From UHGV virus genome UHGV-0269045: a stretch of 7,179 bases of DNA; one strand, written 5' to 3'. The position numbers and the translations under genes were made by a program. How positions within the stretch are numbered: the first letter of the stretch is position 1; the number at the start of each line of letters is the position of its first letter. Shown here in pieces: positions 3,147 through 7,179 of this stretch. Under the pieces are notes generated by a model. The model had not been told where the DNA came from. It made no database searches and saw only the letters and a program-made list of their open reading frames with translations. Source of the DNA: a virus.

Positions 3147-3191
3147 TTTTATTTTTACCCTCGTGTTTAAAAAGTTTTAGGTTGTGGTGCA

Positions 3192-3420
3192 CCTCCTCTA
3201 CCTCTCTACCTAATCATCTTTCATGTCAGTAATGGCGCGGCTTTCAGATGGGTAGAGGGCTTTCGTGGCCCTCTACCCATCCTCTACCCGCCCCTCACAA
3301 ACGATCTTAATCATGGTAGAAGAGGTAGAGAGGTTTTATTAGCCTTCTACCTAGCCCTCTACCCACTTATCATGTTGAATAATATGCGTTTATTTCATCC
3401 AGGTAGATGGGGTAGAGGGC
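3192..3420. repeat. Iteron array (about 11 copies of CTCTACC / GGTAGAG in both orientations), putative replication origin bound by the adjacent primase/helicase
   Basis: Heptamer copies at about 3196, 3204, 3251, 3271, 3283, 3315, 3324, 3345, 3357, 3402, 3411; includes a perfect 11-bp inverted repeat GGGTAGAGGGC (3250-3260) / GCCCTCTACCC (3268-3278); begins 12 nt after the primase stop; no ORF. Confidence 0.7.
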
Positions 3421-3432
3421 TTTTACAAAAAA

Positions 3433-5181
3433 TTATAAAAACGCGTCACAATCATCAGTTGTAATTGCGTTGGTCTGCGTTACTCCCTTAACTCTCCGCG
3501 TAATATATTCATGCCCGTAAACTTTCGCCGCTGGCTTCATGGCCTTGCTGAACTCAGCCACGTTTAGCGGTTTGCTCCTGCCTGCGTATGCCATAAACGC
3601 CAGATAGACGCGGTAAAGGCTGTTCCTGGTCGTATACTTCACTGAATCACCACCGCCCCCCATCATCAGGCCGCGCGCTTCCTCCAGAAAATTCAGGAAC
3701 TGGCAAAACTCAATAACCGGATCCGTCTGTTGCTTTATCGCCAGTGCTTCATCACCGTCGCGCTGTTCCAGTAATAAAGCCCGTGCCTTTTCAGGGTCGG
3801 CAAAATTAGCCAGCAAGCGACGGATAATTACGGGGATTTCAGCCGCGACCTTCTCCGGCAAATCCTTGTCTTTTTCGTCCTCCCTTACAATGTTGTCGAA
3901 CCGGAAAATCACCCGACGGCGTGACACACCTCCGGCCCGCTCGGTGAATATCATCGGGTTATTGTTGGTAGCCAGCACCACCGCCCTGATTACCGCCGTA
4001 AAACGCTTCTCATATTTCGGGTTTATTTCCACGGGGTCGCCGCCCGTGATTTTCTTGATGCCCGTTCCTTCGCCTGTATATTTCGGCTGGTCAGCCAGGA
4101 CGATAAGACGACTCCCGACAACCTGCGCACGTCCACCAGCATCATCAAGTGAGGTCATTTCAGCGCTTACCGTGTTCTGTTTCCCTGCCAGAAGGCTGGC
4201 TATGTGCGTGAATGTACTTTTACCGCTACCGCCCTCTCCGGTGGCCTCAATAAACATCTGCCAGTCGTACCGGTTCGCCATAATCATGTACAGCGCGGCA
4301 CATATACGCATCATCTTTCGCGGGTCTTTTCCGGCTGCGTGCTCAAGCCATTTATGAAAGTTTGGCGCGTTGTCGCGAATGTTCTCCCCTGGTGCTGGTG
4401 GCGTGTACTCAATGCCGTTGTGCGTGGTGATCCAGTTCTCCGGCGTGTGCGGGGAAAATTCCCCCGCTTTCAGGTCAAGCACACCATTGGCGAACGGCAG
4501 CAAATCGCCTGACGGCTCCCCCATTGGTTCGGCAATAACTTTTAACGCTTCCACGGCGTTATTGATTACGCGCTTGCTGAAAGTGGCCCTGTGCTCTGAA
4601 TAGATCACCACCATTTCGCGGCTCAGCTCCATTGTGCTGACCGGACACCATACCCCGCCGCGCCATACGTGAACTATTTCACTTTCAGGATGTACGCAAA
4701 CGCCATCAAATCGACCAGCAAGCAGCTGGGCGCGCTCACTGTCTGCCATTTGTGCCAGTTGCGTATTTTTCTGCTCCGGCATGGTAAGCCCTGCGGCAAT
4801 ATTTTCACGCTCAGCATTCAGATAGCGCCGCCAGTTTTCACACTTCTGGGCGTGCATTCCTTCGGGGTAAAAATTTGTGTCCTGAATATCTGCTGCCGCC
4901 AGCTTCTGACCAATCTTTTTGGTCTCCACCAAGTCCAGTTCTCCTGCCTGGTACAGCCTTACGCGTTTTTTTCCATCAGGAACAATTTGCAGTGCATCAA
5001 GTTCGGCAAGCTGATTTGGCCCAAGCCACACAGGAGGCACATTATCGCCGGATGCGGGGCCGTCCTGCTCCTGCCACTGTTTTGCATGTGCCCACGCATC
5101 ACTACCCGCGAAAATAATCACCTCTGTGTCTTTGTGTTTTATTCCGCGTGGCTGTTTTTTTACGTTCGGTGCCAGTTTCAT
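3433..5181 (-). CDS. Replicative primase/helicase (P4 alpha-like / PICI Pri-Rep type): N-terminal primase-like region plus SF3-type P-loop NTPase
   Basis: 582 aa; Walker A GEGGSGKST around residue 320; N-terminal VIIFAGSDAW ... RVRLYQAGE resembles a toprim-like primase region; ATG overlaps the upstream gene's stop in an ATGA arrangement; iterons directly downstream. Confidence 0.85.
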   Translation of the reverse strand: MKLAPNVKKQPRGIKHKDTEVIIFAGSDAWAHAKQWQEQDGPASGDNVPPVWLGPNQLAELDALQIVPDGKKRVRLYQAGELDLVETKKIGQKLAAADIQDTNFYPEGMHAQKCENWRRYLNAERENIAAGLTMPEQKNTQLAQMADSERAQLLAGRFDGVCVHPESEIVHVWRGGVWCPVSTMELSREMVVIYSEHRATFSKRVINNAVEALKVIAEPMGEPSGDLLPFANGVLDLKAGEFSPHTPENWITTHNGIEYTPPAPGENIRDNAPNFHKWLEHAAGKDPRKMMRICAALYMIMANRYDWQMFIEATGEGGSGKSTFTHIASLLAGKQNTVSAEMTSLDDAGGRAQVVGSRLIVLADQPKYTGEGTGIKKITGGDPVEINPKYEKRFTAVIRAVVLATNNNPMIFTERAGGVSRRRVIFRFDNIVREDEKDKDLPEKVAAEIPVIIRRLLANFADPEKARALLLEQRDGDEALAIKQQTDPVIEFCQFLNFLEEARGLMMGGGGDSVKYTTRNSLYRVYLAFMAYAGRSKPLNVAEFSKAMKPAAKVYGHEYITRRVKGVTQTNAITTDDCDAFL

Positions 5182-5725: not shown

Positions 5726-5906
5726 AGCATTCGGCTCTCTCATCAATTAACCACAGCGCAACACTTTCTGACAGTTTTGCCAGAAGGCCAGCTAATGCGG
5801 ATATATCACCATCATTTAATTTATTAGGGTATACCTCAAGAAGGCGGCAAATAATTTCTGTCTGGTGCGCACGTTCAGCGGCTTCGTGTAATGTAATTTC
5901 CTTCAT
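5715..5906 (-). CDS. Hypothetical protein (63 aa)
   Basis: ATG at 5906 overlaps the stop of the upstream ORF (TAATG); protein-like composition (MKEITLHEAAERAHQTEIICRLLEVYPNKL...). Confidence 0.55.
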   Translation of the reverse strand: MKEITLHEAAERAHQTEIICRLLEVYPNKLNDGDISALAGLLAKLSESVALWLIDERAECYEK

Positions 5907-6091
5907 TAATGCACCTCTTTTAATTCATACACTGCTGAAATAATGACTTGTGATAAGCCATATTCTGATGATTCGCTTCTCACCGCAGCAATAGCCGTCT
6001 GAACATTAACAGCCTTCACATTCTGAGCGATACCAATTGTGTGGCCTAGTGGGTTAACAGCGCTGGCAAATACACGGAAGGTTTTAAGCAC
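5906..6091 (-). CDS. Hypothetical protein (about 61 aa from a GTG start), first gene of the primase operon
   Basis: The 95-aa track ORF has an implausible N-terminal 34 residues; the GTG at 6091 is preceded by GGGGG 6 nt upstream and gives VLKTFRVFASAVNPLGHTIG...ELKEVH. Start-site assignment is inferential. Confidence 0.4.
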   Translation of the reverse strand: MLKTFRVFASAVNPLGHTIGIAQNVKAVNVQTAIAAVRSESSEYGLSQVIISAVYELKEVH

Positions 6092-6097
6092 GGCACA

Positions 6098-6746
6098 CCC
6101 CCTGACGAATACGGGCGACAAAAATAAGATGTGCGTGCGGCAGCTGTGCGCGTGCTTCGCACTCAGTGGCAGCGGTAACGGTGAATATTGCAATGCTGTC
6201 TGTCAGGCACTGCATAAAGCGCCAGACAAAGTAAGGGCGTGCGGATACAGCCATGTGAAAGGCTCCCAGATGAATTTTAAGGAGTCTCGCTACTACGCTG
6301 TCAAACATGGTGGCGAGACGTAACAGGGTTGACAGACTGGTCATCTGGAAACCAGCGAGCACAAAGGCTCCCCCGTTACGCCCCGCCATAATGCGGGTAT
6401 GGGTAGGTTTACGGACACAAAAAAACCGCTTATCGGATGTGGGCGGCTGTCCGCCAGATGTATTCAGGCTGTCAAACCCGGTCGCCATGTGGGCGACGGG
6501 GGAAGCATACAGCCCCGTGATAATTTTTTGCAAGCGGTTTTTACGCATGATGTGACCCCTGACGAATACGAGCGGCAAATACAGCAACACAACCTGACGG
6601 GCAACGGCTACGCGCTTCGCGTTCCGTCCAGGCGGTTACGTGGATGATTTGAGATTCTCCGGCACTCAGTGCCAGAAAACGCCACACAAAGGCCGTTTGT
6701 GTGTACAAGGTGTGGTATATGATTTACGGCAACCATAACGGCTCCT
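6098..6746. repeat. Repeat-rich noncoding leader / regulatory region containing two diverged paralogous segments (about 6098-6266 and 6555-6745) that begin with an identical 15-mer
   Basis: CCCCTGACGAATACG at 6099-6113 and 6556-6570; further shared motifs GCACTCAGTG(G/C)CAG (6159-6172, 6662-6675), CTTCGC, CGGT(A/T)ACG, ACAAAGG and a terminal GGCTCC (6261, 6366, 6740). ORFs on both strands here have non-protein-like composition. Confidence 0.6.
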
Positions 6747-6766
6747 AGTTTACGTTGTTGGTTAGA

Positions 6767-6809
6767 AGCCCTGCGAGTGGTAATGACACTTGCGGGGCTT
6801 TGCTTTTTT
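6767..6809 (+). terminator. Rho-independent terminator on the plus strand
   Basis: AGCCCUGCGAGUG (6767-6779), loop GUAAUGA, CACUUGCGGGGCU (6787-6799): a 13-bp stem including two G-U pairs, followed by UUGCUUUUUU; no U-tract on the minus strand. Confidence 0.7.
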
Positions 6810-6825
6810 AAGTGCTCTTGTGTTA

Positions 6826-6870
6826 AGGTGACCACCTAACAATGGAAAGGCTAATTCAATAGGTGGCCAC
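6826..6870. promoter_or_regulatory. Putative operator: two palindromic GGTG(A/G)CCAC sites about 34 bp apart, overlapping the RBS/start of the Arc-like gene
   Basis: GGTGACCACC at 6827-6836 and GGTGGCCAC at 6862-6870 (GTGGCCAC is a perfect palindrome); the second overlaps the AGGTGG Shine-Dalgarno and abuts the TTG start. Confidence 0.5.
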
Positions 6871-7062
6871 TTGTCAACAATCAAACGCGATAAAAGCCCT
6901 AAAGGGGACGGGCAATCCCCACAATTCAGAATGCGAATTTCTCCAGAGCTAAAAGAGCAATTCGACAAAGAAGCACAGAGCGACGGCATAAGCCTAGCCA
7001 ACTGGCTTAAAGAGTTGGGGCGCACTGAACTAAAGCGGCGCGGCATAGAACCCAAAGGATAA
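6871..7062 (+). CDS. Arc/Mnt-family ribbon-helix-helix transcriptional repressor (63 aa), candidate master repressor of the element
   Basis: PQFRMRISPELKEQFDKEAQSDGISLANWLKELGRTELKRRG aligns by eye with P22 Arc (PQFNLRWPREVLDLVRKVAEENGRSVNSEIYQRVMESFKKEG). TTG start with AGGTGG 4 nt upstream; divergent from the minus-strand operons. Confidence 0.6.
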   Translation: MSTIKRDKSPKGDGQSPQFRMRISPELKEQFDKEAQSDGISLANWLKELGRTELKRRGIEPKG

Positions 7063-7119
7063 AAACTATCAGCGCCGTGGTGTGAGGTATTACGGCGCAT
7101 TGCTATGCAGGACAACACA

Positions 7120-7179
7120 ATGACCGATAAAGAATTGACCAAAACATTATCACCGGCACGGAAAAGACGGCGCAGAAAG
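7120..7179 (+). CDS. 5' end of an ORF running off the window (MTDKELTKTLSPARKRRRRK...); function unknown
   Basis: ATG at 7120 (an in-frame ATG also at 7105); open to the window end; only 20 codons visible. Confidence 0.3.
   Translation, partial: MTDKELTKTLSPARKRRRRK

Follow-up and report, generated by a model that had tools for sequence, protein, structure and literature searches.

The window, by which we mean the whole 7,179-nt stretch of DNA analysed, carries two small genes akin to the cell-division inhibitor Icd, a long ORF, a C4-type immunity RNA with its targets, a putative antisense RNA and a divergent RHH gene (Table 1). The initial annotation had found about 650 bp with no credible ORF in this region, but two Icd-like domains (51.8 and 65.2 bits) and a 168-codon ORF running from 6590 to 6084 were revealed there.

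Table 1. Genes, RNAs and predicted signals of the immunity and early-control region.
Feature	Position	Strand	Details
First small gene past the immunity region	5906-6091	-	61 aa, GTG start
icd-down (downstream icd-like gene)	6084-6254	-	56 aa; NF033153 51.8 bits; analogue of P4 kil and P1 icd
Long eta-like ORF	6084-6590	-	168 codons from GTG 6590; 154 from ATG 6548
15-mer copy 1	6099-6113	.	R-I-R-Q-G codons, 3' end of icd-down; SD for GTG 6091
a2 and b2 targets	6261-6304	-	a2 UUGACAG 6304-6298; b2 UCAUCUGGGAGCC 6273-6261
C4/CI-type immunity RNA	6306-6393	-	RF01695, 72.6 bits, E 3.6e-13
Weak terminator-like hairpin (CCGC/GCGG) and U7	6419-6446	-	between b1 and C4; kept in P1 and P4
a1/b1 target region	6454-6510	-	a1 UUGACAG 6475-6469; b1 CAUCUGG 6460-6454
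Candidate C4 internal promoter	6504-6533	-	-35 TTGCAA 6533-6528; -10 TATGCT 6509-6504
icd-up (upstream icd-like gene)	6541-6736	-	SD AGGAG, ATG 6736; NF033153 65.2 bits
15-mer copy 2	6556-6570	.	R-I-R-Q-G codons, 3' end of icd-up; SD for overlapping ATG 6548 (ATGCGTAA)
Putative antisense -10 TATGAT	6718-6723	+	7 nt upstream of stem-loop 1 base
Putative ~80-nt cis-antisense RNA (as-icd)	6728-6810	+	R1 covariance model, 90 bits
as-icd stem-loop 1	6731-6763	+	anti-SD CUCCU in loop
as-icd stem-loop 2, intrinsic terminator	6765-6801	+	15-pair stem, then GCTTTTTT U tract to 6809
O1 operator-like palindrome AGGTGACCACCT	6826-6837	.	one of two copies flanking the -10
Predicted -10 TAGCCT, main leftward promoter	6848-6853	-	18-nt spacer; positional conservation
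O2 operator-like palindrome AGGTGGCCACTT	6861-6872	.	between -35 and -10; also SD of RHH gene
Divergent RHH gene (Arc/HicB-like)	6871-7062	+	candidate repressor at O1/O2
Predicted -35 TTGACA, main leftward (operon) promoter	6872-6877	-	complement of RHH gene start region (TTG TCA A)

Both Icd-like genes scored above the cut-off of 25 bits for the NCBIfam profile NF033153, for which P1 Icd (52.6 bits) and the P4 kil/eta ORF (73.9 bits) served as references, and their proteins are 49% identical (E 4e-11). The reading frame of icd-down is intact, beginning at ATG 6254 with SD GGGAG, and its product aligned with P1 Icd and with the C-terminal part (Kil region) of the P4 "cI" ORF. In icd-up two base pairs are missing from a (GT)n run near 6698-6704; the resulting frameshift puts the Icd domain in the frame 6708-6541 and leaves the SD-linked ATG out of frame with it. 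This deletion was found only in the window; the equivalent gene of the relatives is intact and encodes 65 aa.

The 15-mer CCCCTGACGAATACG is repeated at 6099 and 6556 as described in the initial annotation, each copy forming part of a direct repeat of 41 nt (76% identity); chance alone would give about 2e-4 exact repeats of 15 nt in a sequence of 715 bp. The two segments are indeed paralogous, though not as elements of a non-coding leader: both are Icd-like coding sequences of the minus strand, and the codons of the C-terminal ARIRQG come from the common 15-mer. The reverse complement of copy 1 does lie, as had been noted, on the SD and GTG of the next gene, leading into GGGGG-N6-GTG with the start at 6091. 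The icd-down stop codon overlaps this GTG (GTGCTTAA), and the 61-aa gene is predicted to be translationally coupled to icd-down; relatives have ATG at the same start position. Beyond it the operon continues with DUF4222 and then a D5_N/DUF5906 primase; iterons of PICI style, terS and a capsid gene are also found in the element. We consider it likely that the host element is a PICI-type phage satellite and that the former "leader" is its immunity and early-control region.

The long eta-like ORF passes through a1/b1, C4 and a2/b2 and ends as icd-down. In one relative (L001) PGAP annotates a 155-aa equivalent across C4, and no stop codon interrupts the icd frame across C4 in any locus with C4 upstream. 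The two-icd architecture was found in 32 E. coli genomes with 85-98% identity. The O157:H7-type relatives correspond to the window minus 6114-6570, which indicates recombination between the 15-mers.

The Rfam C4 model (RF01695) matched the minus strand over its full length (model positions 1-87 of 87), far above the gathering score of 45, and the same model gave 74.9 bits in P4 itself, of which CI belongs to this family. The predicted fold has an MFE of -47.0 kcal/mol (z -6.5), with b' (GGUUUCCAGAUGA, 6353-6341) as a hairpin loop and a' (CUGUCAA, 6335-6329) single-stranded. RNAs of the C4 family are excised from a precursor by RNase P, and repress downstream genes through translation block and Rho-dependent termination. 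The a1/b1 sites are complementary to a'/b' and colinear with a1/b1 of P1 at the same 8-nt spacing; the Rfam model c4-a1b1 (RF03163) matched at 6461-6510 with 46.8 bits, barely above its gathering score of 46.7. At the second target, b' can form 13 bp with b2, which includes the SD GGGAG of icd-down, and a' can form 7 bp with a2; the order and spacing are those of P1 a2/b2. The a and b sites were defined by exact complementarity together with homology with P1, because RNAduplex was generally uninformative on targets of 40-60 nt. P1 DNA is 78% identical with window positions 6296-6485, comprising C4 and a1/b1. The isrK model (RF01394) reached 35.2 bits in the window, under its gathering score of 50, and the overlapping c4-a1b1 model fits better; in P4 (60.8 bits) and the relative L010 (66 bits) isrK was above the gathering score.

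By sequence homology, C4, its targets and the two icd genes are thus identified, and the region is an immunity module of the P1 immI / P4 CI-kil-eta type. The view that these sequences are unrelated to P4 has to be abandoned in face of the C4-family match, a family which includes P4 CI, and of the identity with P1 DNA. The proposal of an RNA-based, P4-like control of the operon was right in itself, but the immunity RNA is the minus-strand C4 and not the plus-strand RNA, and the repeated targets are a1/b1 and a2/b2 instead of the 15-mers. Pairing of C4 and of the plus-strand RNA with the 15-mer regions was near that of shuffled sequence (z values -0.5 to -2.0).

The strict sigma-70 consensus scan of 5800-7179 returned no promoter, so every promoter call made here rests on homology and conservation. 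The candidate C4 promoter, below the threshold of that scan, aligns with the annotated -35/-10 of P1 and is the positional homologue of P1 P1c4 (P51b) and P4 PLE. The weak terminator-like hairpin sits between this candidate promoter and C4, and was counted against the model.

For the main leftward promoter, transcription is predicted to start near 6841. The position of TTGAC(A/G) is constant in all relatives, with a spacer of about 15-18 nt to a -10-like hexamer (TATACC, TAATGT, TATAGT, TATTAT, TAATAT or TATAAT). The operator sequences are wholly different among relatives (GGTAATTACC, GGTGTACACC and others) and change together with the adjacent RHH gene, and the divergent RHH protein is probably the repressor of this promoter. 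In Pfam this protein matched HicB (E 4.9e-4; 20.4 bits, just below the gathering cut-off of 21 bits) and Arc (E 0.14), and PGAP names its relatives HicB-family or YlcI/YnfO. The search for a promoter of the RHH gene in 6810-6871 gave none that was convincing.

The putative plus-strand RNA, as-icd, is the exact complement of the SD and AUG region of icd-up, the first early ORF. Its terminator, placed at 6767-6809 in the initial annotation, was confirmed, and comparative structure supports the plus-strand RNA of about 80 nt ending at 6809 that had been proposed. The as-icd sequence of the window folds with an MFE of -35.5 kcal/mol (z -4.84), against -22.1 kcal/mol (z -2.33) for the opposite strand. 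Of 32 variants, 29 had the more stable terminator hairpin on the plus strand (-26.8 vs -20.5 kcal/mol); the plus strand was also favoured by stem-loop 1 in all 14 variants (-10.3 vs -5.3) and by the whole RNA in 15 out of 15 Enterobacterales species (-36.2 vs -22.6). Folding and covariance across homologues, suggested earlier as a check, agreed with this: 97.2% of the cells were paired and seven pairs were changed on both sides, values reached by 0 of 500 shuffles, and slid controls gave 38-46%. For stem-loop 1 covariation is argued from per-sequence folds and not from a formal count, because the CM-fitted alignment of the 15 species leaves its inner stem unaligned. In these folds the anti-SD is always in the open loop and the AUG of the opposite gene is spanned, whichever gene it is. 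At the level of comparative sequence analysis, the structure is conserved and biased to the plus strand.

Pairing of as-icd with its cis target was far stronger than with shuffled sequence (z -15.7, 300 shuffles). The pairing with the repeats that had been expected was not borne out, the duplex energies against 300 shuffles being z -0.5 for copy 1 and a weak -2.0 for copy 2. The U tract of the hairpin is interrupted in many variants (e.g. UUGCUCUUUGU), and in many E. coli genomes the BLAST homology stops precisely where the U tract ends. The hairpin was also considered as a bidirectional or minus-strand terminator, which was ruled out by the lack of a minus-strand U run and by the strand asymmetry.

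A -10-like element is present upstream of as-icd as had been supposed (about 50 bp upstream of the terminator), but the hexamer that is conserved, TATGAT, lies 2 nt further right than the TATATG first chosen. In every true relative (28 + 12 unique variants) a TANNNT hexamer stands at a constant distance from stem-loop 1, and it overlaps coding sequence; two variants have TATAAT and several have TGnTAnnnT. The hexamer persists while the overlapping N-terminal peptides vary (QHT, KST, NST, DCN, DIT, NHI), the middle codon always ending in T; given the overlap with coding sequence, a protein constraint on the hexamer is possible. The 2-bp deletion of the window leaves a shortened spacer of 15 nt between the putative -35 and -10 of the antisense promoter.

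The relatives were collected by an icd motif and the genome scan also used part of the hairpin sequence, which biases the sample; within it the R1 model matched 91 of 91 evaluable loci with icd directly after the promoter and 31 of 31 evaluable loci with C4, so that as-icd is present at 122 of 122 evaluable relatives, and it was also present in the 15 Enterobacterales species. The homologous E. coli loci amounted to 887 of 5,426 complete genomes, about one in six. The R1 model matched none of 31 chance pattern matches in unrelated genomes, and had no match in P1 or P4. Searching Rfam with 6680-6880 (E<=10) gave far sub-threshold matches only (rnk_pseudo 21.7 bits, ctRNA_pGA1 15.1 bits), the best plus-strand match having 21.7 bits vs a gathering score of 55. 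The segment 6690-6830 had no match in the phage collection and three in the plasmid collection, all of E. coli.

We considered whether the plus-strand element is real and serves something other than icd, being either an attenuated leader of the RHH mRNA or an insulator shielding the RHH gene from antisense transcription. The RHH gene begins 60 nt downstream on the same strand, with no sigma-70 match between 6810 and its start, and in the 15-species set the first ORFs opposite the RNA are in several species not Icd-like and belong to unrelated families. L005 has a second cassette whose icd is truncated to about 16 codons although the antisense module, the operators and an RHH gene have been retained, which could mean that the RNA serves the RHH gene instead of icd. 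Against this, a strong terminator between promoter and gene would be odd for expression of a repressor, and the anti-SD kept in an open loop with the opposite AUG spanned is the signature of an antisense RNA that regulates translation. We judge this explanation rather unlikely, and such a role could coexist with regulation of icd. From the non-Icd-like first ORFs opposite the RNA in several species we conclude, on comparative grounds, that it follows the first translation start of the operon and not a toxin family.

It is highly unlikely that there is no plus-strand RNA and that the hairpin and an AACCA/UGGUU stem work in the minus-strand mRNA as a 5' stabiliser and for start-codon sequestration. 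The operon mRNA from the TTGACA promoter would include both elements, and its leader can pair UAACCA with UGGUUG so that the SD is enclosed. However, many plus-strand G-U pairs become C-A mismatches on the minus strand, all three comparisons above favoured the plus strand, it is only in a plus-strand RNA that the conserved minus-strand A-rich tract 5' of the hairpin gives a U tract, and the fixed -10-like hexamer would be left unexplained.

To the idea that the region is a decaying remnant, a frameshifted icd with recombination duplicates and no present regulatory function, we give very little weight. The frameshift is indeed seen only in the window, and the O157:H7-type relatives display recombination at the 15-mers; yet C4 with its targets a1/b1 and a2/b2 is intact, as are icd-down, the long ORF and the antisense RNA, and all of them score like their counterparts in functional relatives, and the two-icd architecture is shared by the 32 E. 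coli genomes. The original suggestion of a P4-CI-like plus-strand RNA pairing in trans with two 15-mers of a non-coding leader deserves next to no credence, for although repeats and terminator both exist, each repeat forms the 3' end of an Icd-like coding sequence, their duplexes with the RNA are near shuffled, the true CI/C4 homologue with its a/b targets is on the opposite strand, and relatives with one 15-mer and without C4 still have the plus-strand RNA.

Considering all these results, the reading we favour is of an operator switch worked by a protein, with two RNA locks after it, and we think it probable as a whole; within it we infer all promoters, the RNA 5' ends, the involvement of Rho, RHH binding and the direction of regulation. 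The leftward sigma-70 promoter (TTGACA 6877-6872), with its two flanking operators, would be repressed by the divergent RHH protein. Its transcript would begin with icd-up, and the convergent antisense RNA would cover the icd-up SD and AUG; this pairing would block translation of the first ORF and leave the transcript open to decay or to Rho. The internal promoter at 6533-6504 would give a precursor with a1/b1, C4 and a2/b2, and a'/b' of processed C4 would pair with a2/b2 and hide the SD of icd-down, leading to premature termination ahead of the replication and packaging genes, like in P1 and P4. When the outer promoter is derepressed, icd-up would be translated and ribosomes may cross the start/stop overlap ATGCGTAA into the eta-like ORF, go on through C4 into icd-down, and then enter the operon via GTGCTTAA; translation through C4 would make expression insensitive to immunity, as translation of P4 eta does. 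This bypass is probably broken in the window because the 2-bp deletion frameshifts icd-up, and the window copy, with its shortened antisense spacer as well, may be partly defective.

The operon thus appears to have two RNA locks, C4 and the conserved antisense RNA of about 80 nt, and judging from sequence comparison the whole is a known RNA-immunity system joined to what is probably a new cis-antisense RNA. C4 in Gram-negative PICIs was already known bioinformatically, and the antisense RNA, without an Rfam family, is probably the new part. AlpA proved to have an activating role in Gram-negative PICIs, for which a master repressor is not known; whether one exists was called "unclear" by Fillol-Salom et al. 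2018 (PMC6092414). The region offers a concrete control circuit for PICI silence, made of an RHH repressor with co-changing operators, the antisense RNA and, in some elements, C4. We hold it an evenly balanced question whether enterobacterial PICI-type satellites carry an undescribed conserved cis-antisense RNA of about 80 nt, transcribed head-on against the RHH-controlled early promoter and blocking translation of the first ORF, which together with the RHH repressor, with or without C4, is the sought Gram-negative PICI repression system. If the antisense RNA is real, it would be a new RNA family of about one sixth of complete E. coli genomes and at least 15 other Enterobacterales species. Variable C4 b-site specificities would define immunity groups among co-resident satellites. 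Automatic annotation placed ORFs across C4 and, at the RHH gene, on the wrong strand, and it missed both RNAs.

Compared with immI of P1/P7, the window has the promoter, a1, b1, weak hairpin with U run, C4, a2, b2/SD and icd in the same order. The a sequence UUGACAG is identical, b2 lies on the icd ribosome-binding site as in P1, and icd-down is the window copy most similar to P1 Icd. The b' and b1/b2 sequences are CCAGAUGA and UCAUCUGG in the window and CACUAAC and GUUAGUG in P1, which implies a different immunity specificity. Downstream there is a satellite replication and packaging operon in place of ant of P1, whereas upstream the window has an extra icd, the antisense RNA and an RHH-controlled promoter where P1 has the C1 operator Op51.

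With P4 the window shares the Rfam family of CI, an Icd-like Kil (73.9 bits), a long ORF through the immunity RNA that ends as a Kil/Icd protein, a primase operon downstream and, with the window promoters predicted from positional homology and conservation, a constitutive promoter within a regulated outer unit. A translation-dependent bypass of immunity in P4 was reportedly found by Forti and colleagues in 1999. Such a bypass is described for P4 eta/kil in PMC10111431. Unlike P4, the outer unit opens with a second, complete icd that is coupled to the long ORF, instead of with vis/alpA, its promoter has RHH-type operators and is not the delta-activated one of P4, and the primase is of D5_N/DUF5906 type in an element with iterons, terS and capsid gene of PICI style.

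Mageeney et al. 2023 (PMC10111431), on the "Bro zones" of Gram-negative PICIs, report that Rfam C4 and isrK match several Gram-negative PICIs and helper-embedded PICIs, and propose P4-like immunity; the window is one more element of this kind. The word "antisense" occurs 0 times in that paper, and the passages of it consulted contain neither a tandem icd nor a co-varying RHH/operator cassette. The EcCIMP1 paper (PMC11773190) has no mention of Icd, sRNA, small RNA or terminator, and literature searches on Icd-like genes in PICIs, on antisense RNA in EcCICFT073 and on Icd as a cell division inhibitor returned nothing relevant. IsrK of Salmonella (RF01394) resembles the window in a1/b1 with hairpin and U run, as a sub-threshold match.

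P1 Icd is a growth-inhibitory product, and type I toxin-antitoxin systems such as SymR/SymE have 5'-overlapping antisense RNAs. By analogy, as-icd would be a short structured antisense RNA over the SD and AUG of a putative growth-inhibitory gene, with the difference that in several species it faces first ORFs that are not Icd-like. In immI of P22, sar is a cis-antisense RNA of about 70-80 nt, convergent with an RHH-repressed (Arc/Mnt) promoter; it is complementary to the ribosome-binding site of the gene it regulates, and an intrinsic terminator ends it. No sequence or Rfam relation of as-icd to sar was detected, and the likeness may be regarded as functional only. The putative as-icd would share with sar its size, convergence, complementarity to a ribosome-binding site and terminator, but its target would be the first ORF of the operon, whereas that of sar is ant, which follows arc.

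To the left of the control region lies an operon encoding small proteins, a DUF4222 protein and a D5_N/DUF5906 primase, followed by an iteron field of CCTCTACC repeats, a Terminase_2 small subunit and a capsid-family protein. In E. coli relatives the same genes have an AlpA-type regulator and an integrase as neighbours, once beside a tRNA-Pro gene. The window is a PICI-type phage satellite, and the region studied is its early control region (coordinates in the table below). The iteron field is probably the replication origin of the satellite. A run of ten C residues (2370-2381; G10 on the coding strand) was located just upstream of the terS-like gene, and could be prone to slippage.

Features of the satellite control region and iteron field, in window numbering
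Feature	Position	Strand	Description
Iteron field	3190-3425	both	at least 10 copies of CCTCTACC(C)/GGGTAGAGG; adjoins D5_N/DUF5906 primase gene
icd-down, downstream Icd-like gene	6084-6254	minus	
C4 antisense RNA, full length	6306-6393	minus (operon strand)	Rfam 72.6 bits, gathering score 45
a1/b1 target motif	6461-6510	minus	Rfam 46.8 bits, gathering score 46.7
icd-up, upstream Icd-like gene	6541-6736	minus	
2-bp deletion in (GT)n run	6698-6704		frameshift of icd-up
-10-like hexamer TATGAT	6718-6723	plus	7 nt before stem-loop 1 base
Putative plus-strand RNA	6728-6810	plus	over SD and AUG of icd-up
Stem-loop 1	6731-6763	plus	AACCA paired with UGGUU; anti-SD CUCCU in open loop
Putative outer promoter	-35 TTGACA 6877-6872, -10 TAGCCT 6853-6848	minus	overlapped by palindromes
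Ribbon-helix-helix (RHH) gene	6871-7062	plus	divergent

The 15-mer CCCCTGACGAATACG described in the initial annotation was found at 6099 and 6556, within a 41-nt repeat of 76% identity, and the reverse complement of the first copy indeed leads into the GTG at 6091. The surrounding 650 bp had been considered to hold no credible ORF; this was not the case, as each of the two paralogous segments encodes an Icd-like domain on the minus strand (NF033153, 51.8 and 65.2 bits, cut-off 25). The two proteins are 49% identical to each other (E 4e-11), and the homologous E. coli site is labelled by PGAP as "host cell division inhibitor Icd-like protein (x2)". R-I-R-Q-G, the conserved C-terminal end, is encoded by the 15-mer, whose GGGG is also the SD of the overlapping next start: GTGCTTAA follows icd-down, and ATGCGTAA follows icd-up. 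O157:H7-type relatives correspond to the window minus 6114-6570; therefore, the two 15-mers are also recombination joints. The 2-bp deletion in icd-up, which also shortens the spacer of the putative antisense promoter from 17 to 15 nt, was present in the window and absent from all ~135 relatives, indicating either slippage in the recent past or an error of sequencing. The window copy may be locked or defective through this deletion, unless the 2 bp were lost in sequencing.

Relatives were drawn from three sets: E. coli genomes, 120 IMG/VR contigs with the icd motif, and one genome per species of bacteria and archaea. Two contexts were revealed upstream of icd: one with C4 and a2/b2 immediately before icd, and the other with a TTGAC(A/G) promoter and two operators of variable sequence, after which come an A-rich tract, a GC-rich hairpin, CUAACCA, SD and ATG. 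The window contains both in tandem.

The plus-strand terminator noticed earlier was confirmed as a 15-pair stem (6765-6801) with a U tract to 6809, closing a putative cis-antisense RNA of ~80 nt. Its hairpin occurred in 32 sequence variants with compensatory changes among them. In 29 of these the plus strand gave the more stable hairpin (mean -26.8 vs -20.5 kcal/mol), since many of its pairs are G-U and would turn into C-A in the complement. Stem-loop 1 favoured the plus strand in all 14 variants (-10.3 vs -5.3). In an alignment of 25 sequences, 97.2% of cells paired, against 38-46% in slid controls, and seven pairs were changed on both sides; none of 500 shuffles reached these values. For the window RNA the folding energy is -35.5 kcal/mol (z -4.84), and for its complement -22.1 (z -2.33). 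The folding and covariance check across homologous elements, proposed at the outset, came out in favour of a plus-strand structure, and a hairpin acting purely in the minus strand is made unlikely by this strand asymmetry.

R1, a covariance model of the plus-strand RNA, scored 90 bits at the window site. With an nhmmer profile made from the R1 alignment, the RNA was detected at 91/91 evaluable loci with icd directly after the promoter, 86-99 nt from the icd motif, and at 31/31 evaluable C4-bearing loci, 431-507 nt upstream of it. In the genome scan R1 matched all 15 Enterobacterales finds (Citrobacter, Kluyvera, Erwinia, Proteus, Samsonia and others), every one of which folds more stably as the plus strand (-36.2 vs -22.6). 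It matched none of 31 chance hits to the search pattern in unrelated genomes, and P1 and P4 gave no R1 match. In every true relative, a TANNNT hexamer precedes the base of stem-loop 1 by 7 nt; it reads TATAAT in two variants and TGnTAnnnT in several. The opposite-strand peptides over this hexamer vary (QHT, KST, NST, DCN, DIT, NHI), while the third position of the middle codon is T throughout, giving the critical -11 A of the putative antisense -10. The end of the U tract is the exact end of BLAST homology in many genomes. No description of this RNA was found in Rfam, phage records or the papers retrieved, and on comparative sequence grounds it has good support as a candidate new family of cis-antisense RNAs.

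The sequence of the operator-like palindromes (6826-6837 and 6861-6872), paired around the operon promoter, varies together with the divergent RHH gene; the start codon of this gene is complementary to the -35 hexamer. The operator repeats are wholly different between relatives (loci L004, L005, L009, L011, L020 and L021) and the promoter geometry is retained. We infer that the outer promoter is repressed by the RHH protein, and the operator diversity suggests many repressor/operator specificities. PGAP calls "hypothetical proteins" of 222 and 247 aa in two relatives (L001, 7688-8356, and L006, 3258-4001, both minus strand), antisense to the conserved RHH gene and crossing the terminator hairpin; they had no family match and appear spurious.

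The plus-strand RNA could also serve the RHH gene, as an attenuated leader. A promoter for this gene was looked for and none was found, and locus L005 contains at 3800-4190 a second tandem control cassette, in which an antisense RNA (R1 68.9 bits), GGTAATTACC operators and a second RHH gene lie beside an icd truncated to a ~16-codon remnant. The first ORF opposite the RNA is not Icd-like in several species; therefore, "first-ORF lock" is a better label than "Icd antitoxin". Pairing of the RNA in trans with the 15-mers, as initially proposed, fails, since the predicted pairing was close to that of shuffled sequence and the repeats are Icd-like coding sequence, with C4 and the a/b targets on the other strand.

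We propose that the RHH protein would shut the outer promoter, and that leaky outer transcripts would run into the antisense RNA at their first SD and AUG and, untranslated, undergo decay or termination. Transcripts from a putative inner promoter (6533-6504) would be the source of C4, which would shut the second translation start, at icd-down; by analogy with P1 and P4, the replication genes would then not be transcribed. During derepression, coupled translation from icd-up through the long ORF and icd-down into the operon would override C4. More speculatively, and judging by sequence, a 9-bp pairing may form between the SD region of icd-down (6269-6261) and the loop sequence GGCUCCUAG of stem-loop 1.

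The region noticed in the initial annotation is indeed RNA-based, but its anatomy had been misread and the C4 RNA on the minus strand missed. P4 CI scores 74.9 bits with the same Rfam C4 model, and P1 DNA is 78% identical to window 6296-6485. A sub-threshold isrK match overlaps the a1/b1 motif. The C4 loop b' (6353-6341) is complementary over 13 bp to 6273-6261, which includes the SD GGGAG of icd-down (ATG 6254), and it also matches b1 (6460-6454) over 7 bp of complementarity; the single-stranded a' (6335-6329) is complementary to a1 (6475-6469) and a2 (6304-6298). Among IMG/VR loci in which C4 precedes icd (e.g. L010, L023, L049, L059, L107), b'/b2 showed at least five different sequences (CUUCAGUGU, UUCGUUAAC, CUUUGACG, CUUGGACG, CUUGAUUG), a variation that suggests several RNA immunity specificities.

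A weak hairpin with U7 (6419-6446, minus) between b1 and C4 is kept in P1 and P4 and is the counterpart of the IsrK terminator. The annotated P1 immI matches the window in the whole order of -35, -10, a1, b1, weak hairpin with U run, C4, a2, b2 and icd, and from one element to the other the b sites change together. The Kil/Eta ORF of P4 is also Icd-like (73.9 bits); in the window too, a long ORF (6590-6084) crosses C4 and ends as the Icd protein, and this frame is open through C4 in every locus with C4 upstream. PMC10111431 already reports C4 and isrK matches in Gram-negative PICIs, together with the eta/kil logic of P4. The core of the control region is a known P1/P4-type immunity module, to which the window adds one member.
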